Positions 10,031-46,695 of a DNA stretch of 64,000 bases are shown one piece after another (positions within the stretch are counted from its first letter, which is position 1; every line of letters starts with the position of its first letter). The translations under genes and the position numbers were made by a program. Under the pieces are notes generated by a model. That model was not told the DNA's origin, made no database searches, and saw only the letters and a list, made by a program, of their open reading frames with translations. Source of the DNA: Candidatus Magasanikbacteria bacterium CG11_big_fil_rev_8_21_14_0_20_39_34 (GTDB lineage Bacteria > Patescibacteriota > Patescibacteriia > Magasanikbacterales > UBA922); assembly GCA_002787355.1 (NCBI GenBank), contig PCWN01000007.1, positions 86,517 to 150,516 on the forward strand, in the 5' to 3' direction.

Positions 10031-10933
10031 ATGAAAGAAATAGAGAAGAAAATTCGGGAATATATATGTGCATATGAAGGTCCAAAAAGGATGGCTTTGT
10101 CGAGGCGGTATCCTTTTCTTCGTGGACCTATTATTTTTTTTAGGCATTTTCTACGAAATATCCAAAATTTTTTTGATCAAAATATACAGTATAGAAGGGA
10201 AAAAAGTTTTTTTGAATGTGTGGTTGCCAGACATCAGTCTGTGTTGAGACGTAAACTGGGACAGAGTAACCCAAGGTTGCAGGAGCAAAAAATAACAAAC
10301 TTAAAACATGCTATTGATAAGCTCAATGGTATAGTCATAGAACCTAACCATATTTTTTCCTTTTGGGACATTGTAGGAAAACCAAGATATAAGGACGGAT
10401 ATGTAGATGGGATGTTGCTATCCAATGGGGAAGTGGTAGAAGGCATTGGAGGTGGTCTTTGCCAACTTTCTAACTTTCTGTATTGGATTTTTTTACATAC
10501 TTCTACCGAAATTGTAGAAAGGCATCATCATTCCAAGGATGTATTTCCAGACTCTGGAAGAGTACTTCCATTTGGAGGAGGGGCAACTATCTTGTATAAT
10601 TTTATTGACCTCCAAGTAAGGAATACGTCGAATTATCCGCTCCAGGTAAAAATATGGTTAACAGAGGACCATTTGGAGGGGCAGCTATATTCACCCCATC
10701 AATCGATGGAAAAATTTCATATAGGAGAAAAGAACCATTTTTTTGTAAAAAGAGGAAATCACTACTTCCGTTATAATGAAATCTATAGGGAAAAATTCAA
10801 AGATGGAGTTCTCTTAAAAACAGAAAACATAGTTACCAACTTTGCACCGGTACTCTATGAGGTCACGGAAGATTATATACAAAAAAATCATTTTAAGGTT
10901 TTAGATTTTTCTCATGTAAATTGTGACAAATAA
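10031..10933 (+). CDS. VanW family protein
   Basis: The GGGLCQLSNFLYW motif is diagnostic for the VanW domain; 300 aa. Confidence 0.7.
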   Translation: MKEIEKKIREYICAYEGPKRMALSRRYPFLRGPIIFFRHFLRNIQNFFDQNIQYRREKSFFECVVARHQSVLRRKLGQSNPRLQEQKITNLKHAIDKLNGIVIEPNHIFSFWDIVGKPRYKDGYVDGMLLSNGEVVEGIGGGLCQLSNFLYWIFLHTSTEIVERHHHSKDVFPDSGRVLPFGGGATILYNFIDLQVRNTSNYPLQVKIWLTEDHLEGQLYSPHQSMEKFHIGEKNHFFVKRGNHYFRYNEIYREKFKDGVLLKTENIVTNFAPVLYEVTEDYIQKNHFKVLDFSHVNCDK

Positions 10934-17326: not shown

Positions 17327-17971
17327 CTATATTTTTCCAAAGAGGCGTGCCATGCGAAAGATTTCCAAATATACCGAATCCCAATCCTTGCATGGAATCA
17401 CATTTATGGTGGTATCATGAGGATAGTCCAGATGACTATAGAGAAATACGGTTCCATCATATGTTGGTGGAAGAGAAGCAATGAGACCCGGATTATCATC
17501 TATGATACCCAAGAGTCTATCTTCATATTCTGCCAGAATGGAAGCCTTCCAAGGATTATGATTGGATCTTCCAAGCTCCGTTGGTTTCATAATCAGGGGA
17601 ATTTCTGGAAAGCCATGCTTTTGTAACCACTCTTGTGTAACTTCTCGTGTAGATTCAGGTCTAGCCGTAAGATAACAAGAAATGGGCAAAAATTGGCTTA
17701 TCCGTTCAACGAGGTGATGGGCGTTTTCAATGATAGGCAGGTTCTTATACCCTGCTACATCGTAATACTTTGCAATCTTCCATTGTATGACCTCTTCACT
17801 CTCCCAGTAGGGAACTGCATCCGAATGCGAGTACTTTTTTGCAATTTCCTGTATTGTTAAATTTTCGGGGTTTCCAAAAGTATCCATGAGACCTTGGTAC
17901 CAGCTTACGTGTGTAATGGAAAGAGTATCATCAATATCAAGAGCAATTCCTTTTTGTATGTCTTCAATCAT
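17327..17971 (-). CDS. HAD superfamily hydrolase (5'-nucleotidase-like)
   Basis: DxDxT motif in IALDIDDTLS near the N-terminus; 214 aa. Confidence 0.5.
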   Translation of the reverse strand: MIEDIQKGIALDIDDTLSITHVSWYQGLMDTFGNPENLTIQEIAKKYSHSDAVPYWESEEVIQWKIAKYYDVAGYKNLPIIENAHHLVERISQFLPISCYLTARPESTREVTQEWLQKHGFPEIPLIMKPTELGRSNHNPWKASILAEYEDRLLGIIDDNPGLIASLPPTYDGTVFLYSHLDYPHDTTINVIPCKDWDSVYLEIFRMARLFGKI

Positions 17972-19346
17972 ATTTTTTTATAAGTTCTTCAATCATTCCA
18001 CGGAATCCATGTGATCCCAAAAAGACTATAGTATCATCTTTTTCTGCTTTTGAAAAGAGGTGATCAATTAAAAGTTGATCATTATCAATACAAATAACAT
18101 TATTATGCGAATGAGAAATCACTTCTGTAAGTTTCTTTTCATTCATAGGTGGAGCAGAGGCCGTTTTATCAATCTTAATTTTGGTAAGTTTGGGAATGAT
18201 GACTTCATCTGCTTCTCCAAAGGCATTAGTATATGAGTTTATAGACTCTACTTGTCGGTTACCAGTATTTGGTTCAAAGACTGCAAAAATTTTTCCGTTA
18301 CAAATATTGCGAAGTGTCTGAAGTGTATTTCTTGCCTTTGCTGGAGAATGAGCAATATCATCTATGATGGTAATATCTCCCACATATCTTTTTTCCAGTC
18401 TTCTTTTTATCCCTGGAAAATTTTGTATGGCATGCGTAATAGATTCTGGTTCAAATCCTTGTCTGTTGCAAAGAGCAAAACATGCCGTTATATTGGGAGC
18501 CATATACTCACCAAGCAAGGGGAGTGATATTTTTTGCGTAAAGTTTTTGTGTACAATAGAAAAAGTGAGTCCACTTTTTTCTGCTTGGAGATTGGTGTAG
18601 GTATAGTCCGCATTTTTTGATCCATAGGAAACTTTTACGCCAGAAAAATTTTTGGAAAGTCTCTCTACATTCGGGTCATCTGCATTATATACAAGTGATC
18701 CTTCTTCTGGAAGAAGTGTGATAAGTTGCTCAAAAGCCTCAAAATATGCTTGTTCTGTTTTATATATATCTGCATGATCCCACTCAAGGGCAGTGAGAAC
18801 CAAGTGGGTAGGTTTGTAGTGAAAAAACTTAGCTTTCTCATCCCAACGAGCACTTTTGTATTCATCTCCTTCCATAACAGAAAGGTTCGATTTTCCAATG
18901 TATGCTGAATCAAGTGTATCTACCAGACCTCCAAACATATAGCTTGGATCTGCCCCAAGTTTTTGCAACGTCCAAGATAAAAGTGCAGAAGTAGATGTCT
19001 TTCCATATGTTCCAGAAACCACAATAGAGGTATCCTTGATAAAAAATTCTGAGAGTGCTTCCGGGTAGGAAAGGTAGCGGATACCCTTTATTTGTACATA
19101 CATCCATTCTGGATTGTCTGAGCTGGCAACATTTCCTACAATCACAAGATCCGGATCTCCATCTTCCGTCATTTTTTCAACATGCCATCCCGGGTAATAG
19201 GGAATACCAGTATTTTTAAGATGATCAGAAACAGGAGGATAAAACCCTTTATCTGATCCGGTAACTTTGTATCCTTGTTTATGAAAAGCCGTTGCAAGTG
19301 CACTCATGGCGACTCCGCAGATACCTATAAAATGAATGTGCTTCAT
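17964..19346 (-). CDS. mpl: Mur ligase family: UDP-N-acetylmuramate--L-alanine / tripeptide ligase (Mpl/MurC-like)
   Basis: HIHFIGICGVAMSALA, GTYGKTSTSALL, EGDEYKSARWDEKAKF, LEWDHADIY and DDIAHSP blocks align with Mpl better than with MurC. Confidence 0.75.
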   Translation of the reverse strand: MKHIHFIGICGVAMSALATAFHKQGYKVTGSDKGFYPPVSDHLKNTGIPYYPGWHVEKMTEDGDPDLVIVGNVASSDNPEWMYVQIKGIRYLSYPEALSEFFIKDTSIVVSGTYGKTSTSALLSWTLQKLGADPSYMFGGLVDTLDSAYIGKSNLSVMEGDEYKSARWDEKAKFFHYKPTHLVLTALEWDHADIYKTEQAYFEAFEQLITLLPEEGSLVYNADDPNVERLSKNFSGVKVSYGSKNADYTYTNLQAEKSGLTFSIVHKNFTQKISLPLLGEYMAPNITACFALCNRQGFEPESITHAIQNFPGIKRRLEKRYVGDITIIDDIAHSPAKARNTLQTLRNICNGKIFAVFEPNTGNRQVESINSYTNAFGEADEVIIPKLTKIKIDKTASAPPMNEKKLTEVISHSHNNVICIDNDQLLIDHLFSKAEKDDTIVFLGSHGFRGMIEELIKKYD

Positions 19347-19861
19347 ACGATTTTTGGAGTGAAACGCTTTTTAGCTATGAGTTCATCATCTTGTTCTTTT
19401 GGCTCGTATATACTATCCCAATGAAAGATTTGCATACCTTTTCCTTTTGCCCAGAGAATAAGTTTTTCATGGGAAGTTTGAAGAATATATTCTACAGGTT
19501 TTTGACTCACATTAGCAAGATTTTGAAGGTATTTTGCAAGAGCTCTATAGATTTCAGTTGTATCGTTATCCTTTTTTTCCATGCTACTGTTACTTGATAT
19601 CATTGTCGATACTTCTATCATCTGCTCTAACTCTAATATTGAAAACAAAAGTAATTTATTTCCGTAGGTAAGGAGCACATTCTTTTCACCAGAAAATAGA
19701 GATACAGCACGTGTCTGATGTAATAAGGATTCATCTTCAGTATCGGGAAAATATTTTTCTGCAAATGCTAAAGCTTCTTGCGGAGAAAGGACTTTGGCAT
19801 GCTGAAGTATTTCTTCGGTTAGCATTCGAGCGTCGCGTCCGCTTTCTATTTGTGTACGCAT
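19343..19861 (-). CDS. hypothetical protein (translationally coupled between Bpt-like gene and mpl)
   Basis: 172 aa, no family; 4-nt overlap with mpl start. Confidence 0.4.
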   Translation of the reverse strand: MRTQIESGRDARMLTEEILQHAKVLSPQEALAFAEKYFPDTEDESLLHQTRAVSLFSGEKNVLLTYGNKLLLFSILELEQMIEVSTMISSNSSMEKKDNDTTEIYRALAKYLQNLANVSQKPVEYILQTSHEKLILWAKGKGMQIFHWDSIYEPKEQDDELIAKKRFTPKIV

Positions 19862-19869
19862 AACAAAAT

Positions 19870-20541
19870 CTATTTGAGAATATTTTTCAATTGAGTAAGG
19901 TCAGTTTGCCATGTGTTTCCATCAAACCATTCAAAACCTTTAAATTGCATTTTGTATATGTCCCCGGGGCGTTGTGCACTCCCAAGATAAAAATATTTTT
20001 TGCCTTGCTCCTTGGCATAGGTGAGGGCACGTACCATCATACCCATTCCAGTATTGGGATTCATTTCATCGGAAAGGTTATAGAATGGATAGGAGTAGTG
20101 GAGGATATTTTTGGTTTTTCGGGCAATACAATAGCCTACATTTGATGCTGCAATGGAGTATACAAAGACACAATTAAAATTGTTTTGTTCAGGATTGGTA
20201 AAAAGTTCTTTAACTTTATTAGCACTAAACGTTTTTTCACCAAACTTGGTATCATAAAAATCTTTTGCCATTTTTCCAATGCTCCAATGATACTCTGTAA
20301 AAGGAAGGTCTTCCAGTTTCATCTGAAATTCTTCCGTTTTGCGAAGTATACGTTTATTTTCACTGGAGAGTTCAAAAGCTTCCAGGTCAATACGAACGCT
20401 TCGAGTTTGATCCATCATTCCTTTTCCTTTCCGCGTAAAAACATAGCCATTATGATAATACTTTTCAATAGTATGGTCAGAGAAATCCTCAAGAGCCGTT
20501 TGTTTCCAGAATAGATAAGCCATAGAATGTAAGAAGTGCAA
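19870..20541 (-). CDS. Bpt/Ate1-like aminoacyl-tRNA--protein transferase homolog (GNAT fold), N-terminal Cys cluster absent
   Basis: C-terminal YFYLGSAQRPGDIYKMQFKGFEWFDGNTW resembles Bpt YVYLGYWI...KMAYKARF...DGEW. Central YSYPFYN...NTGMGMM resembles Bpt YTFYDPD...SLGTF. Confidence 0.45.
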   Translation of the reverse strand: MHFLHSMAYLFWKQTALEDFSDHTIEKYYHNGYVFTRKGKGMMDQTRSVRIDLEAFELSSENKRILRKTEEFQMKLEDLPFTEYHWSIGKMAKDFYDTKFGEKTFSANKVKELFTNPEQNNFNCVFVYSIAASNVGYCIARKTKNILHYSYPFYNLSDEMNPNTGMGMMVRALTYAKEQGKKYFYLGSAQRPGDIYKMQFKGFEWFDGNTWQTDLTQLKNILK

Positions 20542-20579: not shown

Positions 20580-21713
20580 CTAATACAGTGCAATCCAGAG
20601 GCCCAAGATCACAAATGCAGCATGGAGAATCCAGAATCGCATAACTGTTTTTTCTTCACTCCATCCACGCAATTCAAAGTGGTGGTGCAGAGGTGCCATT
20701 TTGAAAATTCTTCTTCCCAAAAGGTATCGTCCACCAATTTGGATAATCACGGACAAAATTTCTACATAGAAGATAAAGGCCAAAAAGGGGAGCAGGAGCA
20801 TCTGATTTATAACAATGGTGTTAATGGCCAGAAGTGCTCCCATACCCAGTGATCCTACATCTCCCATCTGAAAACGTGCTGGCTTAATATTGAAATACGT
20901 ATAGGCAATCAATGCACCGGTTGCCGTAGCATTGAGGTATGCCATAGAGTTGTATCCATACATCCAAGAGAGGAGGGTCAATACGGCAAAGGTAATAATA
21001 AGCGCCCCCCCGGCCAGTCCATCCATACCATCTGCAAAGTTTACCGCATTTGCAGTAAACATAACAAAGAAAATAATAAGCGGAATGATGAGCCAACCAA
21101 TATTGAGGAATCCATCAAAAGGAATATGAATTTGGCGCCAATGTTCCCCAAGTTTGAAATATATCCACCACGCAGCAATTCCTCCTGCTAAAAATTGCAT
21201 GATTAAACGTTCATGCACATGCAATCCTTTCCCCGGATGAGATCCAAGCCAGAGAGATGTGCGTTTAAAAAAAGTCCAAGGTAAAGTAAGGGTGAGCCAA
21301 AGGCGTTGTTTCCAATCTTTGTGTACCCGGATAAGTTTGAGAACATGTTTTATTTTTCGTATGCGTCTCTTTTTTCCAATAAGATTATTCATCACGTCAT
21401 CGAGTCCTCCAAGAAGTGCAGCAAGGGTCATAACGGCAATAGGCATCCAAGTGAATTTTCTTTCCCAGTTGAAAAGAAGGGTAATCACAATGATCGTGAT
21501 AATGATAAGGAGGCCCCCCATGATAGGGACGCCATATTTGGTTCTTCTTGCACCCATGGCAAGCGTAGCATCATATTCGGGATGTCTCTGAATTTTATAC
21601 TTGTAGAGAAATTTTATAAGTAAGGGCGCCCATAAAAATGCGGAAAGCGTAGCGGCAAGCGCAAAGAGAATAGCGGTGCGAAGGATGTCTACGGACATGT
21701 CTGAAATAAGCAT
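20580..21713 (-). CDS. mraY: phospho-N-acetylmuramoyl-pentapeptide transferase
   Basis: NAVNFADGMDGLAGG and APLHHHFEL signature motifs; 10 TM. Confidence 0.95.
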   Translation of the reverse strand: MLISDMSVDILRTAILFALAATLSAFLWAPLLIKFLYKYKIQRHPEYDATLAMGARRTKYGVPIMGGLLIIITIIVITLLFNWERKFTWMPIAVMTLAALLGGLDDVMNNLIGKKRRIRKIKHVLKLIRVHKDWKQRLWLTLTLPWTFFKRTSLWLGSHPGKGLHVHERLIMQFLAGGIAAWWIYFKLGEHWRQIHIPFDGFLNIGWLIIPLIIFFVMFTANAVNFADGMDGLAGGALIITFAVLTLLSWMYGYNSMAYLNATATGALIAYTYFNIKPARFQMGDVGSLGMGALLAINTIVINQMLLLPFLAFIFYVEILSVIIQIGGRYLLGRRIFKMAPLHHHFELRGWSEEKTVMRFWILHAAFVILGLWIALY

Positions 21714-21778: not shown

Positions 21779-21888
21779 TACATGAGAGCTAATTTTAGCA
21801 AAAAACATAGAAACTATATCAAAAATTTGCTGTATTGACAAGGTTGGAGCAGAAAACCTCGTCTGGACGAGGTTTTCTATCTTTCAAC

Positions 21889-22728
21889 TCAAAGTGCATG
21901 CAATCTTCGTATCTCACATCTTTGTGCGGTTTTTGCTCTCCAAAAGGTTTCATTTTCTTCTCCTGTTTTCTCGTTTTCAGTCCATGTTTGCTCCAAAAGG
22001 GACGTATTGTGGTCTGTTATCTCGATATGTCCTTTTCTTACACCACCACCATATTTTCCATCCCTCTTCCACTGCAGTGCATGGGTGTAGTGGATGATCA
22101 CAGGGGAGAGTGGGTTATATTCTATTGCATGGATAACAAGGATATGGTTGAGATCATGGTCTTTCCCCGTGCCAAGGAGGATAATCATATCTCCGGGGGT
22201 GACTTGAGACAACTGAACAACTTTGGTGTTCATGTCTGAAACCAGTGTTTCAACGCTGCAGTTTTCTGCCGGTCGTAGACGAACAAGAATTTTTCGGAAG
22301 AAGCTTTTTGCATGGGGGTAAAAAAGCTTCAGAGGTTTTGCCTTTGTGGCCCGTACTTCTTGGTGGAGTATATGATAGGCAAGTCCGGAACAATCAATAC
22401 CAAGATTATTGTCCACTAAAAACTCCTTGAGTTTTTCTTGTGGAATACTGGCAAGGTCAAGATGATGTTTTAAAGATATAATTTTTGCTTCTTCTTCAAT
22501 ATCTTCGGGTGTTCCTTTCCCAATCAACACGCCGAGTGCCGCTCGGACCTTTGTTGCCTTATTCAAAAAATAAGGGCATTGAATTTTTTTCCCATCTATT
22601 TGAAGATTCATAAAATGATCAATCAGTCGCAGGGTTGATTCATGGAGAGATTGTGTAGTTTCAGAAGGAATAGGTTTCATGGAAAATGATTTATTCAAAT
22701 ATTTTTTTAATTCTTTCTCCTTCATCAT
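21889..22728 (-). CDS. C40 (NlpC/P60)-like cysteine peptidase/amidase domain protein
   Basis: GIDCSGLAYHIL (catalytic Cys context DCSG) followed by GDMIILLG...NHILVIHAIE (His); 279 aa. Confidence 0.4.
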   Translation of the reverse strand: MMKEKELKKYLNKSFSMKPIPSETTQSLHESTLRLIDHFMNLQIDGKKIQCPYFLNKATKVRAALGVLIGKGTPEDIEEEAKIISLKHHLDLASIPQEKLKEFLVDNNLGIDCSGLAYHILHQEVRATKAKPLKLFYPHAKSFFRKILVRLRPAENCSVETLVSDMNTKVVQLSQVTPGDMIILLGTGKDHDLNHILVIHAIEYNPLSPVIIHYTHALQWKRDGKYGGGVRKGHIEITDHNTSLLEQTWTENEKTGEENETFWRAKTAQRCEIRRLHAL

Positions 22729-23932
22729 TTAATTTTTCCTCATGTGAAATGAAGGATCCATGTTTTGTTCGGATACGCAGGAGTTCAGTTCCGTCTTCTG
22801 TATTGGGAGTATCAATAACCGTGTATCCAAGGGATTCAAGTTGATTTTTCCAAGATAAAAGTTTTTGTGCATCAAAATGAATTTCTGCATCACGAAGAAT
22901 GATTTGCGCTCCCTTAGTCAGGGGAATGATTGATTGGTATGGAATTGAAAAATCCAAAAGACTCATGAGATGAGCTTCAAAAATTGTGAGCGGCATTTCC
23001 AAAGAGGTTTTTTCTTTTTGTAAAAGAGATTCAAAAGGAACGGATGCCGGTTGGCGTGCATTTACCTCCAAGAGATAAAGTTCTTGTGTTTCTTTATCTA
23101 CAATAACGTCAATTCCATAAGCTCCAAGCCAACCATCTTGTTGGAGTTTTTCTCCCACTTTTTTTGCAATATCAAAAAATTTTTGTTTTTGGGTATCCGT
23201 TAAAAAGCGATTTGCAAAATCAAAATCATTTCCAATAGTTGCAAAGGGATTATTGGTAAAAGGAGAGATCCCGGTGATTTGATAACTGATATTTCCCAAA
23301 AAAATATTTTCTTTGGATACCACATTATTACTGGTAAATGTTGGACCAGAAATATACTTGAGAGCACGTACGGGACGCTTCGGGAAGGTTTGTTTGAGTG
23401 CATTGAGCTGCTTGATGTCAGAGATACATTGTGTCCCCGTTCCAGTGTGAGAAGTATTAAACTGCAAAATAAAGGGGATTTCAAAATCAAGATTTTCAAG
23501 CGTATCCACACAATGGGGCGGAAGAAGGTATTCAAGAGGCCCAAGCCAGTCAATTTGTGAAATTTTTTCTTCAATAGTAGAGCTCAAAGAGACGAGAGGG
23601 TTGAGGAGCTTCCATGTATTTTGTGTGCAGATACGTTCAATTTGAGAAGTTGGTTTGAATACTAAAAGAGAGGGATTGGGCCCGTTTGAAGCAATATTTT
23701 TGAGAAAGCTTTCTGTTTCTTCCCTTTGTAAAAGATCAAAGGTAGGGAGGAGGTGTTCAGATTCAATGAGAAGAATATTTTTCCTTCCTTGTGAAATGAA
23801 TTTGGCAAAAGGGGTTGAATTTGAGATAATAAAGTACCCGGGAGTATCAAAAGAGAGGCCCATAGCACGCTCAATATCTCGGGTCACATAAACAACGGGA
23901 TGTTTTTTGAGAAATGTAAGGAATTCCTGCAT
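22691..23932 (-). CDS. ATP-grasp domain protein (carboxylate-amine ligase)
   Basis: C-terminal GWLGAYGIDVIVDKETQELYLLEVNARQPAS is a typical ATP-grasp Mg/ATP-binding block; 413 aa; 38-nt overlap with the downstream C40-like gene. Confidence 0.6.
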   Translation of the reverse strand: MQEFLTFLKKHPVVYVTRDIERAMGLSFDTPGYFIISNSTPFAKFISQGRKNILLIESEHLLPTFDLLQREETESFLKNIASNGPNPSLLVFKPTSQIERICTQNTWKLLNPLVSLSSTIEEKISQIDWLGPLEYLLPPHCVDTLENLDFEIPFILQFNTSHTGTGTQCISDIKQLNALKQTFPKRPVRALKYISGPTFTSNNVVSKENIFLGNISYQITGISPFTNNPFATIGNDFDFANRFLTDTQKQKFFDIAKKVGEKLQQDGWLGAYGIDVIVDKETQELYLLEVNARQPASVPFESLLQKEKTSLEMPLTIFEAHLMSLLDFSIPYQSIIPLTKGAQIILRDAEIHFDAQKLLSWKNQLESLGYTVIDTPNTEDGTELLRIRTKHGSFISHEEKLNDEGERIKKIFE

Positions 23933-24005
23933 AGATACGTCAAGTATACTAGATAAGCCTTTACTCTACAATAATGGACGTGTGAGGAAGGACAAATCTT
24001 ACACT

Positions 24006-24977
24006 ATGTATCAGACACTGAAAAATTTTGGGAAAGCAAAAATTCAAGAACCACTTTGCAAGCATACGACCTTTAAAATAGGAGGACCCGCGGATTTTTT
24101 TGTGACGGTTGAAAAAATAGACAAGTTGCAAGAGTTACTTGCTTTTTTGGATGGTGAAGGACAGGAGTATTTCATTTTGGGAGGTGGGTCAAACATGCTT
24201 GCAAGAGATGAGGGATTTCGTGGAGTTGTCATAGAAGTAAAGGATAAAACCATTGAGCAAGAGGGAGATGAAATGATTGCCTGTGCTGGGGCCGTTACTG
24301 TAGAAGTGGCACAACAGAGTATGAAAGGTGGACTTACTGGATTTGAATGGGGAGTGGGAGTACCGGGAACCATTGGCGGTGCGGTTCGAGGAAATGCTGG
24401 TGCAATGGGGAGTGAAATGAAAGATAATGTAAAAAAAGTTTTGCTCTACAAAGATGGATCTTTACATGAGTATGATAATGATGCTTGTGGTTTTGAATAT
24501 AGAAGCAGTATTTTCAAACGTGAAGGAGGAATTATTTTGAAAGTTTGGTTAAAACTCAAAAAAGGAGAAAATATTGAAGGTAAAAAGAAAATGCTTGAGT
24601 TTTTGCGATATAGAAATACTACACAACCACAAGGGTATGCCTCAACTGGGTGTATCTTTAAAAATGTTGAGTTCAATGAAACAGTACCAAAAGGAGCATA
24701 CAACAGAAAAAAACTTTTGGAGCATTTTGATAAAGAAAATGAAAAAGTTCAACAATTCTTGTCTGTGGGAAAGATTTCTGCTGGTTGGTTGGTTCAAGAG
24801 GCAGGTTGTAAAGGGTATCAAGTGGGACAGGCACAGGTTTCAGAGAAGCATGGAAATTTTATAATCAACTTGGGAGGAGCGACTTCTCATGATGTTTTGA
24901 AAATCATTGAAATGGTAAAGGAAAAGGTGTACAATACCTATGGGATAGAACTTGAAGAAGAAATTCAAATCGTGTAG
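24006..24977 (+). CDS. murB: UDP-N-acetylenolpyruvoylglucosamine reductase
   Basis: TTFKIGGPADFF, ILGGGSNML FAD-binding blocks, C-terminal MurB domain. ATG 24006 chosen within ORF 23907(TTG)..24977. Confidence 0.85.
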   Translation: MYQTLKNFGKAKIQEPLCKHTTFKIGGPADFFVTVEKIDKLQELLAFLDGEGQEYFILGGGSNMLARDEGFRGVVIEVKDKTIEQEGDEMIACAGAVTVEVAQQSMKGGLTGFEWGVGVPGTIGGAVRGNAGAMGSEMKDNVKKVLLYKDGSLHEYDNDACGFEYRSSIFKREGGIILKVWLKLKKGENIEGKKKMLEFLRYRNTTQPQGYASTGCIFKNVEFNETVPKGAYNRKKLLEHFDKENEKVQQFLSVGKISAGWLVQEAGCKGYQVGQAQVSEKHGNFIINLGGATSHDVLKIIEMVKEKVYNTYGIELEEEIQIV

Positions 24978-28433: not shown

Positions 28434-28535
28434 AACTATCCACCGAAGGGACTATTGACCCACAAGAGAAGATGGGGTAGAATGGGGGCACAGTTTTTTG
28501 TAGGAAAGAATATATATTTGTATGGAAAAATTTGT

Positions 28536-30593
28536 ATGGCAAAAGATTTAAGAAAACGTTCACAATCAAAGATTCGATCTAAAATTCGTTGGGGGACAGC
28601 AGTATTGTTACTGCTTCTTGTTATTTGTGGAGCATATGATGCACCTGCATATTATAATTCCCTGGCAGGAAAAATTTCTAAGTCTACAGGAATTGGGATT
28701 CCACAGTTGAGTGAGAACCCATTTCGCTTAGGACTTGATCTCCAAGGAGGAGCACACCTTATCTATCAGGCAGATACTTCAGATATAGCAGAATCTGAGC
28801 AACCAGCAGCCGTAGAAGGTGTTCGAGATGTCATTGAGCGCCGTGTAACTGGTATTGGTGTTGGTGAACCAAATGTTCAGACCAACCGTGTAGGAAGCGA
28901 TTATCGTATTATTGTGGAACTTCCGGGAGTAACGGATATCAAAGAGGCTATTGGTATGATTGGTGAGACCCCAATTTTGGAATTCAAAGAACCAAATAAC
29001 GTTCCACCAAGAGAGTTGACAGCAGAGGAACAAAAGCAGATAGATGAATATAATGGAGATGCCAAACAAAGAGCTGAAACATTATTAAAAAAAATTCAGG
29101 ATGGTGAAAATTTTGAAGATGTGGCAAGAGCTTCATCTGAAGATCGTACAACAAAAGAAAAAGGTGGTTATCTGGGATTTGTTGGAAAAAATTCTCTATA
29201 CTTTCAATACTACATCTGGGGAGCGTCATCTGCGGAAGGGGATATCAGTCAAACTGTTTATGATGGGGAAGACGGATACAATATCCTAAAGCGTGGTTCT
29301 GAGCGTGAAGGTGAAAACGAGGTAGAGGCAAGTCATATCCTTATTTGTTATCTTGGTTCTGCAGGGTGTGAATCTCCACAGTATACAAAGGATGAGGCAC
29401 TTCTAAAGGCAGAAGAGCTTTATAAACAAGCAAATGCTGATAACTTTGCTGAACTTGCGAAAGAAAACTCGGAAGATACTGGATCTGCAAGTATTGGCGG
29501 AAAACTTCCTCCTGTTACCAAAGGGATGATGGTTCCAGCATTTGAAGAAGCTCTTATGCAGGCAAAAGTTGGAGAAATTATTGGTCCGGTAGAAACTCAA
29601 TTTGGATACCACATTATTTACAAAGAATCAGAGGCTCCATCAAAAGAATATGAACTTTGGAGAATTTTGGTAAAAAAAGAAACAGAATTCGATATTTTGG
29701 GTCCACAAGATCAATGGATGAAGACGGATCTTTCTGGAAAACAACTTGATAGATCTGAAGTAGTAACAGATCCAAAGACAGGAGCAGCAGAGGTTGCATT
29801 AAACTTTGATAAAGAAGGTACAGAACTTTTCCGTGATATAACAGAACGAAATGTAGGAAAACCTGTTGCAATTTATCTTGACGGACAGCCAATCAGTACT
29901 CCAACAGTGAATCAGCCAATCCGAGATGGAAAAGCCGTCATTAGTGGAAATTTTAACATTCAAGAAGCAAAACTTCTTTCACAAAGATTGAATGCTGGTG
30001 CATTGCCAGTCCCAATTGATTTAATTTCACAACAGGCAATTGGTGCAACACTTGGAGCACAATCTTTGGCAAAGAGTTTGAAGGCTGGTGTCATAGCTGT
30101 GATTATTGTGATGTTGTTTATGATTTTGTACTACAGACTTCCAGGAGTGTTATCAGTGGTTGCTCTACTCCTTTACATCGCACTAACTTTATCTCTCTTT
30201 AAGATTATTGGCGTGACTCTTACATTGGCAGGTATTGCAGGTTTGGTACTGTCTATTGGTATGGCAGTTGACGCCAATGTGTTGATCTTTGAAAGAATTA
30301 AAGAAGAACTCAATGAAGGAAAGACACTCAAAACGTCTATTGAAGAAGGATTTATTCGTGCATGGAGCTCAATTCGCGATGGAAATGTTTCAACCTTGCT
30401 TACTTGTTTCATCCTTATGGGATTTGGAACCAGTTTCGTAAAAGGTTTTGCTATTACTCTTTCACTGGGAGTATTAGTAAGTATGTTTTCTGCCATTACG
30501 GTGACAAAAACCTTCTTGCGATTTATAAACCCTTGGTTTAAAGAAGAAGCAAATTGGTTGTTCTTAGGTAGCAAAAAAAATAAAAACGTATGA
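28536..30593 (+). CDS. secD: protein-export membrane protein SecD with an embedded parvulin (PpiC-type) PPIase domain
   Basis: SecD P1-head and TM blocks (GLDLQGG, SLGVLVSMFSAITVTKTF). Between them, ASHILICY...GGKLPPVTKGMMVPAFEEA...TQFGYHIIYKE matches the PpiC/parvulin fold. Confidence 0.85.
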   Translation: MAKDLRKRSQSKIRSKIRWGTAVLLLLLVICGAYDAPAYYNSLAGKISKSTGIGIPQLSENPFRLGLDLQGGAHLIYQADTSDIAESEQPAAVEGVRDVIERRVTGIGVGEPNVQTNRVGSDYRIIVELPGVTDIKEAIGMIGETPILEFKEPNNVPPRELTAEEQKQIDEYNGDAKQRAETLLKKIQDGENFEDVARASSEDRTTKEKGGYLGFVGKNSLYFQYYIWGASSAEGDISQTVYDGEDGYNILKRGSEREGENEVEASHILICYLGSAGCESPQYTKDEALLKAEELYKQANADNFAELAKENSEDTGSASIGGKLPPVTKGMMVPAFEEALMQAKVGEIIGPVETQFGYHIIYKESEAPSKEYELWRILVKKETEFDILGPQDQWMKTDLSGKQLDRSEVVTDPKTGAAEVALNFDKEGTELFRDITERNVGKPVAIYLDGQPISTPTVNQPIRDGKAVISGNFNIQEAKLLSQRLNAGALPVPIDLISQQAIGATLGAQSLAKSLKAGVIAVIIVMLFMILYYRLPGVLSVVALLLYIALTLSLFKIIGVTLTLAGIAGLVLSIGMAVDANVLIFERIKEELNEGKTLKTSIEEGFIRAWSSIRDGNVSTLLTCFILMGFGTSFVKGFAITLSLGVLVSMFSAITVTKTFLRFINPWFKEEANWLFLGSKKNKNV

Positions 30594-43491: not shown

Positions 43492-43723
43492 TAAGGGAGA
43501 GTGTATTGGTTGTGGCTCTTGTACACTGTATGCAGAGCATTATTTTGAGATAGATAAAGAAGATGATGCCAAAGCGCATTTAATACGTTCTACACAAAAA
43601 GGAAACATGGAAATTTTGGATATAGAAGACTTTGAAATGGAGGTAAATATTGATGCGGCAAGAGGATGTCCCATGAGCTGTATCAAGGTATTGGGAGATG
43701 ATGGAAGAATTTTGGGGGAATAA
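43472..43723 (+). CDS. small ferredoxin-like protein (Cys-x2-Cys-x2-Cys ... Cys-P)
   Basis: ECIGCGSCTLYAE ... ARGCPMSCI; 83 aa; overlaps the U32 stop by 20 nt. Confidence 0.55.
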   Translation: MPKVTHDKGECIGCGSCTLYAEHYFEIDKEDDAKAHLIRSTQKGNMEILDIEDFEMEVNIDAARGCPMSCIKVLGDDGRILGE

Positions 43724-43729
43724 ACGATC

Positions 43730-43758
43730 TTGACAAAAGATGAGGAAAATGGTAAAGT
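43730..43758 (+). promoter_or_regulatory. sigma70-like promoter TTGACA-17-TAAAGT driving the GC-rich ORF
   Basis: TTGACA at 43730-43735, 17-nt spacer, TAAAGT at 43753-43758; directly after the ferredoxin stop. Confidence 0.5.
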
Positions 43759-43872
43759 TTGGTGCTTGCCATTTTTGTTTTTGGGTTCAGAGAAAAGCAA
43801 CAAAGGTTGTTTTTCCCTGGACCCAGTGGTGGTCCGTGTATCCGTGCCGTTGGCACACAGGAAAATGGGGGC

Positions 43873-44586
43873 ATGATGCGAATCAAGCCTTGGAGTGAGC
43901 GCTCGGCGCTCACTCGCCTCCTCGTGATCGAGGGGGAGGTGAATTCGGTTGAGGAACTCGCGACGCGACTGGCCGCGGAGGGACTGCTGGAGTGGGCCAG
44001 CAACAACTCCCTCCGGGCTGTCGTTTCCGAGATCGTCGGTGAGGGCGGCTACAAGGAAGCCGCCCGATGCCGGCAGATCCAGGGAGGCGTCAACCTCGGT
44101 GAGGAGAGCATCGAGATGTTCCGCGCGTGCGCGGAGCGTCTCATCCGGATCGGGGGGGATGAGAACCTCCCCACGATCACCCGAGCGCTCGCTCTGCACA
44201 ACGCCGCTTCCTGCCTCGCGGCGTGGAACGGCGTGGATCTCGATCGCCAGGAGTCACTCAACGAGCGGTCGGTCGAGTTGCTGGAGCAGGTCCCCGAGGC
44301 GAACCGAGGCGACGACTGGTGGGAGGCCTACAGGAAGCCTGTCGTCGGCCTCTTCGAGGCCGGCGTGAAGGCTTGGGATCCCTTCATGTACTTCCAGATT
44401 ATCCGGCGGATGATCGAGAACGGTTCCAAGGACTCAGCGGGTCGTCTCGAGTACTTCATCCGGCGAATGGCCTCCGATCTGGGGGCCATGGCTGGGGTGG
44501 TCCTCGACGAGGAGCTCGGAGCTCACAACCAGCGAGATCGTTTGCTGGCCCTCATGGGGCACCTGCAGGCACTCGTCGCCGCCTGA
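43873..44586 (+). CDS. hypothetical alpha-helical protein encoded in a compositionally foreign (GC-rich) ORF
   Basis: 238 aa (MMRIKPWSERSALTRL...LQALVAA). GC3-rich codons (ctc/atc/ggc/gag) unlike every other gene here. About 107-nt structured GC-rich leader; strong terminator downstream. Confidence 0.55.
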   Translation: MMRIKPWSERSALTRLLVIEGEVNSVEELATRLAAEGLLEWASNNSLRAVVSEIVGEGGYKEAARCRQIQGGVNLGEESIEMFRACAERLIRIGGDENLPTITRALALHNAASCLAAWNGVDLDRQESLNERSVELLEQVPEANRGDDWWEAYRKPVVGLFEAGVKAWDPFMYFQIIRRMIENGSKDSAGRLEYFIRRMASDLGAMAGVVLDEELGAHNQRDRLLALMGHLQALVAA

Positions 44587-44644
44587 TTCACCCCCCACCT
44601 ACGACCTTACCTTCGGCGGCCAGCACCCACATTGGCCGCAAAAA

Positions 44645-44696
44645 ACACCTGAGTTTGTATGTATGCCATATAGCTTCAGGTGTTTTTTTATTTTTG
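44645..44696 (+). terminator. rho-independent terminator after the GC-rich ORF
   Basis: ACACCTGA-(23 nt)-TCAGGTGT followed by TTTTTTTATTTTT. Confidence 0.6.
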
Positions 44697-44956
44697 GATA
44701 AATTCATTGTCATTGCGAGCTGAGTATACAGCGTGGCAATCCACCCACCTGAATATACGCCAATTATGGAATTTCCTCTTCCTAACAAGGAGATTGCCGC
44801 GTCGTCGTGGCGGACTCCTTGTAATGACAAAGTGAAGGATATTCAAAAGTATTATACAACTGGATTACCTGTATATATAGATAATTTTTTGTTTGCAAAA
44901 AAAAGGAAAAGAAGATAGAATAAGGGAAAAAGCTAAGATATATATTTTGTGGGTTT

Positions 44957-45817
44957 ATGAAAAAAATTCTTATTTTAGGTGCAAAGGGGACACTTGGGGG
45001 AGCTCTAGTAGAGGAGTTTTCAGGGGATGCTACCGTCATTGCCTGGGACAAGGAAGATTTGGATCTGGCTCATATGGGTGATGCAAAAGAAAAGATTCAG
45101 GGGGTTCAACCAGATATTATCATCAATGCCGTTGCAATAAATGCCGTGGATGCCATAGAGGAAGATGAGGAAGTTTACGAAGTTGCCAAACAAGTGAATG
45201 GTCATGCCCCGGGGGAATTGGCAAAGATTGCAAAAGAACTTTCTATTCCATTTGTCCACTATTCAACGGATTATGTTTTTGATGGAGAAAATACATCTGG
45301 ATATCAGGAAGACGATATTCCGCATCCACTCAGTCGTTATGGGTATATTAAAAGACTTGGCGAACAAGAAGTAGAAAATGCCGGTGGAGAGTATTTTATT
45401 ATTCGTTTATCCAGATTATTTGGGAAACCAGGTATAAGTGAACATTCCAAGCGAAGTTTTGTTGATACCATGATTTTTTTGGCAACAGAAGGTGGAAAAA
45501 CTGAACTCAATGTGGTGGAGGATCAGTTTGGATCACCAACCTACGCACCGGATCTTGCAAAATTTACGCGACATCTTTTGGAAAGTGGAAAAGAACCAGG
45601 GATATATCATGGCGCAAATGATGGATCATGCAGTTGGTATCAATGGTGTAAAAAAGTTTTTGAGATAAAGGGGATTACTATCCCAGTTCATAAAGTACCC
45701 CATACAGATTTTCCACGTCCGGCACCGGTACCACAATGTTCAACACTCAAAAATACAAAGTTTCAAAAACAAAGGACTTGGCAAGAAGCATTAGAAGCAT
45801 ATTTGGCAGGTAAATAA
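44957..45817 (+). CDS. rfbD: dTDP-4-dehydrorhamnose reductase
   Basis: MKKILILGAKGTLGGALV Rossmann N-terminus, the YSTDYVFDG block and the overall RmlD pattern. Confidence 0.8.
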   Translation: MKKILILGAKGTLGGALVEEFSGDATVIAWDKEDLDLAHMGDAKEKIQGVQPDIIINAVAINAVDAIEEDEEVYEVAKQVNGHAPGELAKIAKELSIPFVHYSTDYVFDGENTSGYQEDDIPHPLSRYGYIKRLGEQEVENAGGEYFIIRLSRLFGKPGISEHSKRSFVDTMIFLATEGGKTELNVVEDQFGSPTYAPDLAKFTRHLLESGKEPGIYHGANDGSCSWYQWCKKVFEIKGITIPVHKVPHTDFPRPAPVPQCSTLKNTKFQKQRTWQEALEAYLAGK

Positions 45818-45822
45818 AATAT

Positions 45823-46695
45823 ATGAAAATGGATTTGAGTATTATCACTGTCTGCACCAATGATAAAGAACGTATTTTGGAAGTACTCCAGTCTGTTTTT
45901 GATGGTACAAAAGGTATCTCTTTTGAATACATTGTTTCAGATAATGGATCAACGGATGGCTCTGTAGAAACTATACGAAAAGAGTTCCCACAAGTAAAGA
46001 TTGTAGAAAATGGAAAAAATGTGGGTTTTGGTGCTGCAAATAATGCTGCGCTCCAGCTGGCAACAGGGGAATATATTCTTCTTCTAAATCCTGATATGAG
46101 GATTCATCCAGGAAGTTTGGAAAAAATTCTTGAATGGGCAAGAAATCACGATAACGTTGGGATTGTGAGTCCAAAACTGGTAGATCAAAACGGAAAATTT
46201 CAACAAAATGCAAAGCCCAGACGTTTCCCCGAATTTTGGGATCAAGCCGCAATTTTGCTAAAATTACCACATATTTTCCCAAAAATATTGGATAGATATA
46301 TGTATATGGGGTTTGATCCAGAAAAAGAACAGAAAGTGGACTCCGTGCGTGGTTCGTTTATGTTGATTCGTAAGGATATTCTTGATACACTAGGATGGGC
46401 TTTTGATCCAAGGTATTTTATTTGGTTTGAAGATGTGGATACCTGCCGTGAGGTGCAGAGGTTAGGATATGCTGTCATGTATTCTCCAGTGATTGAATGT
46501 GTGGATTATGTAGGTCAAACATTCAAACGCCTTCCAACCCTTCAGAAGCAAAAGTGGTTTACGACATCTATGGTTCAATACTTTAAAAAGTGGGAACCGT
46601 GGTATAAGTGGATGCCACTTGTGTTTCTCAAATACATTGGTATATTTCTTGCCTGGATTTACGATACTTTTTTTCTTAAAAAAATAAAAAAATAA
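45823..46695 (+). CDS. family-2 glycosyltransferase
   Basis: SIITVCTND, DNGSTDGS and LLNPDMRI: GT-A DxD-type motifs. Confidence 0.7.
   Translation: MKMDLSIITVCTNDKERILEVLQSVFDGTKGISFEYIVSDNGSTDGSVETIRKEFPQVKIVENGKNVGFGAANNAALQLATGEYILLLNPDMRIHPGSLEKILEWARNHDNVGIVSPKLVDQNGKFQQNAKPRRFPEFWDQAAILLKLPHIFPKILDRYMYMGFDPEKEQKVDSVRGSFMLIRKDILDTLGWAFDPRYFIWFEDVDTCREVQRLGYAVMYSPVIECVDYVGQTFKRLPTLQKQKWFTTSMVQYFKKWEPWYKWMPLVFLKYIGIFLAWIYDTFFLKKIKK

Follow-up and report, generated by a model that had tools for sequence, protein, structure and literature searches.

Gene organization of the locus

The window, i.e., the whole stretch of 64,000 nucleotides from a Candidatus Magasanikbacteria contig (PCWN01000007.1) that we analyzed, carries a cluster of genes for cell-wall synthesis and, directly downstream of mraY, the gene of a protein resembling aminoacyl-tRNA transferases that we call BptL (Table 1). 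Its maximal open reading frame encodes 223 amino acids from a TTG start codon in the list of reading frames of the window, and both peptides that the initial annotation had cited lie inside it. Because homologues begin at the equivalent of Met7 when aligned, the start is probably the ATG at position 20523, and the protein would then be 217 amino acids long. The minus-strand stack that had been described, from MraY over BptL, a 172-aa open reading frame and a Mur ligase to a HAD-type protein, is present in the window, where the 172-aa frame overlaps the ligase gene by 4 nt and the ligase gene overlaps the HAD gene by 8 nt. Judging from its pattern, the hairpin behind the HAD gene likely marks the end of the operon. 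At the other end, a candidate promoter precedes mraY, though sigma-70-like matches were barely enriched in the pattern scan compared to shuffled sequences. Scanning the window for Rfam families and tRNA genes gave no match.

Table 1. Features of the cell-wall gene cluster around bptL (positions are those of the window).
Feature	Coordinates	Strand	Evidence
Terminator-like hairpin, 15-bp stem and T-run, directly past the HAD stop codon	17287..17322	-	Pattern scan only
Phosphatase-like protein of the HAD superfamily (final operon gene)	17327..17971	-	Pfam APP1_cat, E 5e-6
MurC/Mpl-family ligase with Mpl-specific insertion EGDEYKSARWDEKAKFFHYKP and GSDxxxYPPxS motif	17964..19346	-	NCBIfam, PDB matches
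172-aa hypothetical protein between BptL and ligase; variable, non-core	19343..19861	-	ORF
BptL, Bpt/ATE-like aminoacyl-tRNA transferase without Cys cluster	19870..20541	-	ORF, NCBIfam, hhalign, AF2, Foldseek
MraY, phospho-MurNAc-pentapeptide translocase, directly upstream of BptL	20580..21713	-	Glycos_transf_4, E 6e-26; TIGR00445, 180.6 bits
Sigma-70-like promoter match (10/12), 5' of mraY	21813..21841	-	Pattern scan only
279-aa NlpC/P60-like protein with GIDCSG motif, without signal peptide	21889..22728	-	Faint Pfam NLPC_P60 match, E 0.1; motif from translation
413-aa ATP-grasp ligase	22691..23932	-	Pfam ATP-grasp_3, E 4.5e-6; NCBIfam PRK06524-like, E 3e-15
MurB, divergent to the cluster	23907..24977	+	NF010480, 292 bits, above cut-off

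BptL is a divergent relative of Bpt and ATE1

The initial annotation had proposed kinship with the C-terminal GNAT-fold blocks of Bpt and ATE1, and BptL is indeed a true but very divergent relative of these enzymes, a relationship that is weak for the single sequence and solid at the level of the family. On its own, the window protein matches the Pfam domain ATE_C (PF04377) with E = 0.022 and 15.8 bits (gathering score 25) and the NCBIfam arginyltransferase model NF002346 with E = 1.1e-10 and 41.3 bits (cut-off 170), which leaves it below the cut-offs of all NCBIfam arginyltransferase families (170-358 bits). Among 26 diverse family members, 25 match ATE_C with a best E-value of 1.4e-8, and hhalign aligns the family with the true Bpt of Pseudomonas over residues 25-213 at 97.4% probability and E = 1e-11. 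None of the 26 members matched ATE_N (PF04376), and none matched FemAB (PF02388) at E <= 1. The comparison of profiles suggested initially places BptL on the Bpt/ATE branch and not in an unrelated GNAT family. When the PDB was searched with a sequence profile from the BptL alignment, the only match was a marginal one to a generic GNAT protein (8osp, E = 0.005), and neither a transferase nor a Fem protein came up.

The predicted structure agrees with this placement. The AlphaFold2 model (pLDDT 93.4, pTM 0.90) has the two-lobed ATE fold, and in Foldseek searches of the PDB its top match is human ATE1 (E = 5e-9, TM 0.71), with Kluyveromyces lactis Ate1 (klAte1) reaching a TMq of 0.67-0.69. The best matches are all aminoacyl-tRNA transferases, i.e., ATE1 (TM 0.55-0.71), aminoacyl-phosphatidylglycerol (aa-PG) synthases including MprF, FemX, L/F-transferase and Sba18, and human ATE1 comes out ahead of FemX (TM about 0.49). 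As modeled, BptL is a soluble two-lobed GNAT-fold protein of Bpt/ATE1 descent.

Catalytic residues and substrate pockets

An N-terminal CxxC...CC cluster had been reported as missing from BptL, and this holds across the family: the window protein contains only C124 and C138, no cysteine is conserved across the 26 diverse members, and hhalign places a 7-residue deletion exactly over the CxxCxxC of Bpt (C61-C67). By contrast with this loss, Y196-K197 is invariant in all 26 members and aligns with Y216-K217 of Bpt. The corresponding pair of klAte1, Y303/K304, has been equated with F304/K305 of FemX in a study that also addressed the role of this catalytic pair (PMC9351520), while the link from klAte1 Y303/K304 to Bpt Y216-K217 is a correspondence of motifs that we made here (MNYK in Bpt, M(N/K)YK in ATE1). 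Through the ATE1 equivalence, Y196-K197 of BptL would correspond to F304-K305 of FemX. By alignment, BptL keeps the peptide-bond-forming Tyr-Lys pair and a basic helix for tRNA binding, whereas its zinc/Fe-S cysteine cluster has been lost.

Donor-pocket positions, which we took from the same study (PMC9351520), map by profile alignment, not by superposed structures, to Y149 and M168, both invariant in the BptL family. These positions are Ala/Ala in Bpt and Ser/Ser in ATE1, and the replacement of the two Bpt alanines by Tyr149/Met168 suggests that the donor is neither Leu nor Arg; it is probably a small amino acid, i.e., Gly, Ala or Ser. On the acceptor side, we defined the pocket of ATE enzymes for an acidic N-terminal residue by klAte1 Arg80 in the motif G(W/F)RRSG, Tyr25 and Tyr87. 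In a low-confidence part of the hhalign alignment, GFRRSG of Bpt becomes G(Y/F)(V/L)xTR in BptL with loss of the first Arg, and the nearly invariant R37 of BptL is paired with the second (Bpt R51); the segment with klAte1 Tyr25 is deleted. One Arg of this acidic-substrate motif may therefore be kept as R37, and an N-terminal Asp or Glu might still serve as acceptor. Residues that are invariant across the whole family cover the catalytic and donor side of BptL; the remainder of the protein differs from clade to clade.

Conservation of the gene neighborhood

Relatives of BptL occur in at least 411 GTDB species, and across these species-level genomes the family is unannotated. We counted gene order in the best 80 species-representative loci of these at least 411 species, with flanks of 8-10 kb per locus. 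Among the Magasanikbacteria-type loci in this set, an Mpl-like ligase follows BptL in 66 of 69 and MraY precedes it in 65 of 71. In distant CPR clades, whose BptL proteins are 31-44% identical, bptL is part of a complete dcw-type operon with the order RsmH-PBP-MurE*-BptL-ligase-MurB-MurA-(Ddl)-MurF-MraY-...-FtsW, where MurE* is an N-terminally truncated MurE. There, the ligase directly follows BptL in 14/15 loci with a median gap of -4 nt, and MurE* directly precedes it in 15/18. The gene order is thus conserved over 80 species representatives as well as in more distant clades, and the association with cell-wall genes that had been inferred from MraY and the Mur ligase in the window stands. 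However, the constant partner of BptL is the downstream Mpl-like ligase and not MraY.

Additional genes belong to this cluster, i.e., the ATP-grasp protein, the NlpC/P60-like protein and a PLP enzyme related to ThrC (PALP). Homologues of the ATP-grasp protein are present in 57/86 Magasanik-type loci, those of the NlpC/P60-like protein in 62/86 Magasanik-type and 13/31 distant CPR loci, and the PALP enzyme in 67/86 and 10/31, respectively; single-sequence searches of PDB sequences with the NlpC/P60-like and ATP-grasp proteins gave no match. The divergent MurB arrangement recurs in 51/86 Magasanik-type loci. We had considered the conserved ATP-grasp protein as the Ddl of the cluster but rejected this assignment, since a canonical Ddl (344 bits) lies beside it in one locus (L106). 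The 172-aa protein matches no Pfam or NCBIfam family and has homologues only in a few related loci (L001-L003, L014, L020, L033 and L077). A HAD homologue was found in only two related loci, and most relatives carry a NUDIX protein or a PLP enzyme at this place.

In a third, non-CPR sister clade (56 loci on high-GC contigs), no Mur gene lies closer than 10 kb to BptL; directly upstream and on the same strand, these loci encode a GARS-like ATP-grasp protein (16 loci) and an alanine racemase (11 loci). In addition, one CPR member adjoins only a LysRS gene. The link to the cell wall is thus not a rule for the whole family, and the acceptor of BptL need not be peptidoglycan everywhere. None of the N-degron genes aat, clpS and clpA is among the called neighbors in the 12 gene-called loci.

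An Mpl-type partner ligase and truncated Mur enzymes

The partner ligase had been annotated as mpl/murC-like, and its membership in the MurC/Mpl family is borne out, but it is not a plain MurC because it carries the Mpl-specific insertion. Its NCBIfam scores are 284 bits for murC (TIGR01082) and 255.6 bits for mpl (TIGR01081, cut-off 388.7), both below the respective cut-off, and its best PDB match is the Mpl of P. arcticus (3hn7, 172.8 bits, compared to 138 for HiMurC). Over EGDEYKSARWDEKAKF, it aligns without gaps to the Mpl structures 3hn7 and 3eag, whereas a 7-residue gap opens against HiMurC; its C-terminal domain aligns only weakly with Mpl (33.8 bits). Previous work described the segment Y-x-(S/T)AFFDKRSK as specific to Mpl and absent from MurC-F, and the substrates of Mpl as free tri-, tetra- and pentapeptides (PMC3060825). 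A regular expression found the insertion in 75/87 partner ligases, and it is visible in ligases of the distant clades, too.

Other Mur proteins of the BptL operons are unusual as well. MurE* matches its model only from position ~87-94 and has no space for more sequence upstream; we rejected a gene-calling artefact because there are stop codons in the upstream frames and because the reading frame in L107 starts 4 nt past the PBP stop codon. The MurF of these operons matches its model from position 65, so that MurE* and, apparently, also MurF would be without the N-terminal UDP-binding domain. MurE* retains the D(N)PR arginine, in the form EDPR, in 24/28 loci, which suggests a DAP-type residue. 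In L097, a full-length MurE lies beside the truncated one, and in L106 a gene for a muramoyl-L-alanine amidase sits between MurE* and BptL.

Neither MurC nor MurD is encoded in the long dcw-type operons within the 8-10 kb flanks. As a query for the flanks, E. coli MurD lacked sensitivity (43 bits for the gene described below), and a CPR MurD query matched only in L056. There, a MurD-like ligase (TIGR01087, 133 bits; MurD N-terminal domain PF21799), whose homologues are common in Paceibacteria, is encoded 3 kb from BptL. Given this divergent MurD-like gene, a strong form of the idea that BptL replaces MurD is unsupported.

Proposed function of BptL

On balance, we lean toward BptL being a tRNA-dependent aminoacyl transferase that acts on a peptide precursor of peptidoglycan, i.e., an enzyme of Bpt/ATE descent that would have been recruited to a Fem-like function. 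Going by the gene context, Fem-like modification of the stem peptide by such an addition needs the fewest assumptions. BptL would be a dedicated enzyme of peptidoglycan precursors in these Patescibacteria, co-transcribed and often translationally coupled with the Mpl-type UDP-MurNAc ligase as well as with MraY or truncated MurE, and would use a charged tRNA to aminoacylate a free amine of the stem peptide. Aminoacyl-tRNA transferases acylate amines, and the sole free amine of the stem peptide is that of the diamino acid at position 3. The likeliest site would therefore be this amine on a UDP-MurNAc-peptide or a lipid intermediate, and the outcome would be a branch or bridge residue like those made by FemX, MurM or VanK elsewhere. 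Fem-type enzymes such as VanK are known to put Gly branches on DAP, but DAP-type peptidoglycan is seldom branched, which counts against this model. It also counts against a role in peptidoglycan synthesis that dcw clusters are large and ancient, so that an unrelated gene may ride along by synteny. Beyond the fold and the catalytic residues, the assignments of acceptor and donor are candidates suggested by the gene neighborhood.

Alternatively, BptL could act on another acceptor, i.e., an amine-bearing small molecule or envelope component, in a module with the ATP-grasp and PLP enzymes that makes a short D-amino-acid peptide or an aminoacylated metabolite, used for the wall in CPR bacteria and differently elsewhere. 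We consider this unlikely, though each of the three classes of gene context contains a triad of BptL with an ATP-grasp protein and a PLP enzyme, with the ThrC-like PALP in the CPR loci and with the GARS-like protein and alanine racemase in the others. The concentration of invariant residues on the catalytic and donor side would also fit. However, the ATP-grasp and PLP families differ between CPR and non-CPR loci, so the parallel may be superficial, and in CPR genomes the coupling of BptL is tightest to the Mur ligases and not to the ATP-grasp gene.

Another reading, to which we give a rather small chance, invokes a stem peptide that is assembled or salvaged off the nucleotide. BptL would use Ala-tRNA to place L-Ala, the first residue, on the free alpha-amine of a peptide containing D-Glu, which, though not a protein, would mimic the N-terminal Glu/Asp recognized by Bpt/ATE enzymes. 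MurE*, the ATP-grasp protein and the NlpC/P60-like protein would make or trim this peptide, and the Mpl-type ligase would then load it onto UDP-MurNAc. Such a pathway would make sense of a partner ligase with an Mpl-only insertion from an enzyme type that takes free peptides, of MurE and apparently MurF proteins without their UDP-binding domain, of long dcw-type operons without MurC or MurD, and of the position of BptL behind MraY, the usual place of murD. The conserved cytoplasmic NlpC/P60-like gene, the amidase gene in L106 and the acid-recognizing Arg that may persist in BptL point the same way. Against it stand the MurD-like ligase in at least one BptL genome (L056), the full-length MurE in L097 and the possibility that MurC and MurD sit elsewhere in these genomes, outside the flanks covered. 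Furthermore, the ligase scores at least as high for murC as for mpl in all scored cases but L097 and may simply be the MurC of this lineage, perhaps its sole enzyme of that type. We also know of no Bpt/ATE enzyme that takes a D-amino acid as acceptor.

In a more far-reaching version of this reading, which seems improbable to us, UDP-MurNAc is not the carrier on which the stem peptide grows residue by residue. Instead, the MurE and MurF proteins without domain 1, the ATP-grasp protein and BptL would assemble or repair a free cytoplasmic peptide, with BptL making the L-Ala-D-Glu bond from Ala-tRNA in the direction reverse to MurD, before the Mpl-type ligase loads it.

An ordinary N-degron enzyme, i.e., a minimal Bpt that puts a destabilizing residue on N-terminal Asp/Glu of proteins and is found in a cell-wall operon through inherited synteny, is similarly doubtful: Bpt and ATE1 are the nearest relatives in sequence and fold, the catalytic residues and possibly one GFRRSG Arg are kept, and certain databases give members such names, but the sub-cut-off scores, the undetected ATE_N domain, the deletion of the Cys ligands and the Tyr25 segment, a donor pocket unlike those of both Bpt and ATE1, the lack of clpS, clpA and aat neighbors, and a Mur linkage with overlapping stop and start codons that is kept over the distant CPR clades all speak against it.

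If BptL is a Fem-like enzyme, as we favor, a lineage of N-degron transferases was independently recruited to cell-wall synthesis, and this function would be the first handle on an otherwise unannotated family. To our knowledge, no enzymes other than FemXAB/MurM are known to add amino acids from tRNA to peptidoglycan precursors, and the wall chemistry of Patescibacteria is essentially unstudied; our literature search found no paper on the BptL family, on this wall chemistry or on tRNA-dependent steps in it. The combination of an Mpl-type ligase, MurE/MurF without UDP-binding domain, an additional ATP-grasp ligase, a cytoplasmic NlpC/P60-like protein and a PLP enzyme points to an unusual precursor pathway in these bacteria. 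Should the version with assembly of a free peptide be true, a tRNA-dependent step would be part of core peptidoglycan synthesis, beyond the decoration of bridges. For the biology of ATE1 and Bpt, BptL offers a naturally reduced enzyme that does without the metal cluster. Its small size, solubility and confidently predicted structure make the hypothesis directly accessible to in vitro assays.

Comparison with known transferases and ligases

Bpt, the bacterial aspartate/glutamate leucyltransferase, and eukaryotic ATE1, an arginyltransferase, pass Leu or Arg to N-terminal Asp/Glu of proteins and feed a ClpS/ClpAP or Arg/N-degron pathway. These closest relatives of BptL share with it a colinear two-lobe fold and a series of motifs, i.e., the basic helix RxxL..F..S.(E/Q)NRR, (Y/F)xFYD, YLG, the catalytic YK and ExxxxxxW. 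They differ by their Cys4 metal cluster, which BptL lacks, by their ATE_N domain, which was not detected in BptL, by Ala/Ala or Ser/Ser in the donor pocket in place of Tyr149/Met168, and by their genomic context, which is one of N-degron genes and not of Mur/dcw genes.

FemX, FemABX, MurM and VanK add Gly, Ala or Ser from tRNA to the position-3 amine of peptidoglycan precursors. BptL has the superfamily fold in common with them (FemX in Foldseek: E about 8e-7 to 3e-6, TMq about 0.47-0.49), as well as the aromatic-Lys catalytic pair of FemX, the proposed type of reaction and the linkage to genes of peptidoglycan synthesis. Fem proteins are larger, with about 335-420 aa compared to about 220 aa, and BptL comes from the Bpt/ATE branch outside PF02388, so that a Fem-like function would reflect independent recruitment.

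The aa-PG synthases (C-terminal domain of MprF, LysX) and Aat have the same tandem-GNAT fold (Foldseek E 1e-7 to 4e-6), though the overlap covers one lobe only (TM about 0.45-0.49) and there is no sequence match. Unlike the aa-PG synthases, BptL has no membrane domain; the member beside LysRS recalls the LysX fusion.

The partner ligase, finally, shares with Mpl the segment behind DEY ((S/T)AFFDKRSK in Mpl, SARWDEKAK in the ligase), Tyr182 and YPPxS, but it stays below the mpl cut-off (256 versus 389 bits) with a slightly higher score for murC, and its C-terminal domain, which chooses the substrate, is divergent.

A conserved neighbourhood of cell wall genes

The strongest evidence on BptL, a Bpt/ATE-like aminoacyl-tRNA transferase without Cys cluster, comes from its gene neighbourhood. 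Its maximal ORF, which contains both peptides quoted in the initial annotation, encodes 223 aa from a TTG start, but homologues in the family alignment begin at Met7, which coincides with an ATG at 20523, so that the protein is probably 217 aa long. The ORF coordinates bear out the described minus-strand stack of MraY, BptL, a 172-aa ORF, a Mur ligase and a HAD-like protein (see table). BptL and the 172-aa ORF are 8 nt apart, the 172-aa ORF overlaps the ligase gene by 4 nt and the latter overlaps the HAD gene by 8 nt, with a strong terminator-like hairpin 3' of the HAD gene. MurB lies upstream and is divergent from the stack, while MurA, FtsW and MurG are also encoded further along in the window.

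When one genome per GTDB species was scanned, 411 species proved to encode a BptL relative. In the best 80 loci, which belong mainly to Magasanikbacteria and show no less than 51% identity, an Mpl-like ligase is encoded 3' of BptL and on its strand in 66 of the 69 loci with room for it and MraY directly 5' in 65/71. The commonest full order in this set is MurB (-) followed by ATP-grasp, NlpC/P60-like protein, MraY, BptL, ligase and a PLP enzyme. Neither the HAD gene nor the 172-aa ORF of the window is conserved. More divergent members, which share only 31-44% identity with the BptL of the window, carry greater weight: the genes of P0147, P0163, P0175 and P0184 again directly precede the same type of ligase. 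A metagenome scan seeded with the P0184 subfamily yielded 24 distant CPR (Patescibacteria) loci, L100-L123, where BptL is part of a single long dcw-type operon with the order RsmH, PBP, MurE* (an N-terminally truncated MurE), BptL, ligase, MurB, MurA, (Ddl), MurF, MraY, NlpC/P60-like protein, PLP enzyme, ATP-grasp and FtsW. There, the ligase is directly 3' of BptL in 14/15 cases at a median distance of -4 nt, i.e., overlapping, and MurE* is directly 5' in 15/18. The gene order on which the initial annotation had built is therefore conserved, and a linkage to Mur genes that has outlasted divergence to 31-44% identity as well as several rearrangements points to a pathway common to BptL and the Mur enzymes, not to an accident.

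Several side observations concern these loci. One distant locus carries an N-acetylmuramoyl-L-alanine amidase gene (Amidase_3, E 4e-40) between MurE* and BptL, and in 11 distant CPR loci GlyRS is found a few genes 5' of the dcw operon, which may be mere synteny. Many database records behind L007-L086 bear the label "uncultured Gammaproteobacteria", and a single one reads "Candidatus Udaeobacter", although their cluster is the same Patescibacteria-type one at 51-63% protein identity; these labels look like placeholders or mis-binning. The window itself has a GC content of mostly 0.33-0.41, and tRNA and Rfam scans of its 64 kb gave zero matches, including at 43500-46000, where GC rises locally to 0.47 and several overlapping ORFs occupy both strands (43540-44723). 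It also encodes a SecD-like protein in which the SecDF P1 head is preceded by inserted peptidyl-prolyl isomerase (rotamase) domains of PPIC type, an unusual fusion, and a VanW-like protein (E 7e-40) whose gene is ca. 9 kb away from the cluster.

Coordinates of BptL, its neighbours and other features mentioned in the text
Feature	Position	Strand	Remark
BptL	window 19870-20541	-	maximal ORF
MraY	window 20580-21713	-	stack, 5' neighbour of BptL
172-aa ORF	window 19343-19861	-	stack, between BptL and ligase
Mur ligase	window 17964-19346	-	stack
HAD-like protein	window 17327-17971	-	last gene of stack
NlpC/P60-like protein	window 21889-22728	-	upstream of MraY
ATP-grasp protein	window 22691-23932	-	upstream of stack
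SecD-like protein	window 28455-30593	+	
VanW-like protein	window 10031-10933	+	
MurE*	L097 6739-8004; L096 58-1377; L095 2033-3301; L093 2-1081; L107 8769-10001		directly 5' of BptL, several CPR clades
MurF	L107 14410-15663; L095 3-1229		
PALP enzyme	L001 12976-13857; L004 11037-12011; L021 10223-11125; L107 17694-18638		
Amidase_3	L106 9366-10001		between MurE* and BptL
GlyRS	L107 3269-4570		5' of dcw operon
LysRS	L087 7018-8568		downstream of P0156
Alanine racemase or GARS-like ATP-grasp gene	L179 8819-9988		sister clade, upstream of BptL
GARS-like ATP-grasp	L173 3271-4605		sister clade, upstream of BptL

BptL is a Bpt/ATE-branch protein without the metal site

By descent, BptL is a protein of the Bpt/ATE branch, in agreement with the homology initially claimed. 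Pfam ATE_C scores below threshold against the window protein alone (E 0.022) and was found in 25/26 family members, of which none (0/26) matched ATE_N or FemAB (PF02388). Seven NCBIfam arginyltransferase models match (best E 1.1e-10), all far under their cut-offs, and profile-profile comparison using a diverse alignment aligned BptL with genuine Pseudomonas Bpt over nearly its full length (97.4% probability, E 1e-11). The best PDB matches of a confident AlphaFold model (pLDDT 93.4, pTM 0.90) are exclusively aminoacyl-tRNA transferases, with human ATE1 at the top (E 5e-9, TM 0.71) and, further down, aminoacyl-phosphatidylglycerol synthases/MprF, FemX, the ATE1 proteins of yeast and K. lactis, L/F-transferase and the peptide synthase Sba18.

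An invariant Tyr-Lys pair, Y196-K197, aligns with Y216-K217 of Bpt; the equivalent pairs of ATE1 (Y303/K304) and FemX (F304/K305) are essential and stabilize the tetrahedral intermediate (PMC9351520). The N-terminal Cys cluster is indeed absent: the family has no conserved Cys at any position, all four zinc/Fe-S ligands of ATE_N are lost, a 7-residue deletion takes out the CxxCxxC stretch, and the segment with klAte1 Tyr25 is missing as well. R37 aligns, in a weakly aligned part, with Bpt R51, and one Arg of the GFRRSG motif for acidic N-terminus recognition may thus be retained. Y149 and M168 are among the only invariant residues that are family-specific rather than common to Bpt. They align with two of four donor side-chain pocket positions, where Leu-specific Bpt carries Ala/Ala and Arg-specific ATE1 carries Ser/Ser along with a Glu (PMC9351520). 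This alignment suggests that the donor amino acid is neither Leu nor Arg and probably small.

The family is large and well conserved. At 90% identity, it comprises upwards of 1,040 clusters, typically 55-65% identical and nearly all from Patescibacteria, and an exhaustive profile search gave 546 clusters at 50% identity. Most members are unnamed; databases list them as hypothetical or under automatic N-end-rule names, and we found no publication on the family in the literature. Some carry extra domains (P0256, 809 aa; P0258, 373 aa; P0034, 379 aa): as judged by eye, P0256 has a long C-terminal fusion with a terminal motif like the mobile domain of PEP-utilising enzymes (TDEGGTLCHAAIHAREL), and P0034 has additional GNAT acetyltransferase domains.

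Unusual partner proteins

The ligase had been called mpl/murC-like; it scores about equally on both models and falls under both curated cut-offs, and its substrate may be either L-Ala or a preformed peptide. Its closest solved relative is Mpl of Psychrobacter arcticus (3hn7), with which it aligns gap-free over the Y-x-(S/T)AFFDKRSK segment, whereas H. influenzae MurC requires a 7-residue gap there. This segment of Mpl is absent from MurC-F (PMC3060825). The window protein has the Mpl-only insertion as SARWDEKAK after DEY, plus a YPPxS motif, and partner ligases of all clades share the insertion. MurE* matches MurE models strongly, though only from position ca. 87-94 onward and with no coding room upstream, and thus has no N-terminal UDP-binding domain. 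Its DAP-specifying motif, present as EDPR, retains the Arg. The MurF encoded in these operons likewise lacks its N-terminal part and begins around model position 65.

Two further conserved cluster members have no detectable relatives among PDB sequences. The ATP-grasp protein is weakly PRK06524-like, and we rejected its identification as Ddl because a canonical Ddl coexists with it. The NlpC/P60-like protein has a GIDCSG motif and no signal peptide and is considered cytoplasmic. In other clades, both genes lie between MraY and FtsW, the normal position of murD. The PLP enzyme is of fold-type II and threonine-synthase-like (PALP), present in 67/86 Magasanik-type and 10/31 distant loci and absent from the window, where the HAD-like gene ends the operon.

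Proposed function and alternatives

Transferases that use aminoacyl-tRNA acylate amines, and a stem peptide has a single free amine, on its position-3 diamino acid; VanK, for example, adds Gly on LL-DAP. The simplest model, which we favour by a modest degree, is therefore a Fem-like reaction, in which BptL would add a branch or bridge residue from aminoacyl-tRNA to the position-3 amine of a DAP-type stem peptide. The fold, the superfamily branch, the retained catalytic pair, the lost metal site, the changed residues of the donor pocket and the conserved operon linkage to peptidoglycan genes were observed, and the reaction is the step that we infer.

Not all members are wall-linked. The CPR protein P0156 has only LysRS as neighbour, immediately downstream, and 56 loci of a non-CPR sister clade (L124-L179; 33-40% identical to P0184) on high-GC contigs of large genomes have no Mur genes within 10 kb. 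Directly 5' on the same strand, these encode a GARS (PurD)-like ATP-grasp (16 loci) and an alanine racemase (11 loci), possibly as a three-gene peptide-building operon. That BptL works in a separate peptide module with the ATP-grasp and PLP enzymes is unlikely. Also quite unlikely is assembly or repair of the peptide off the nucleotide, with BptL placing the first residue on the D-Glu amine and the Mpl-type ligase loading the peptide: this ligase would fit, as would MurE and MurF without domain 1, but in L056 a MurD-like gene is close to BptL, and in L097 the truncated MurE is adjoined by a full-length one. Least probable is a plain N-degron enzyme. A role more fundamental than the modification of wall peptides is a remote possibility.

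If the Fem-like model is true, a different transferase lineage would carry out tRNA-dependent wall-peptide modification. BptL resembles Bpt and ATE1 in descent, fold and the Tyr-Lys pair, but it lacks ATE_N with its Cys cluster and stays below the curated score thresholds, and we therefore do not file it as Bpt. To FemX, MurM and VanK it would be similar by its proposed function, although it is not a member of PF02388.
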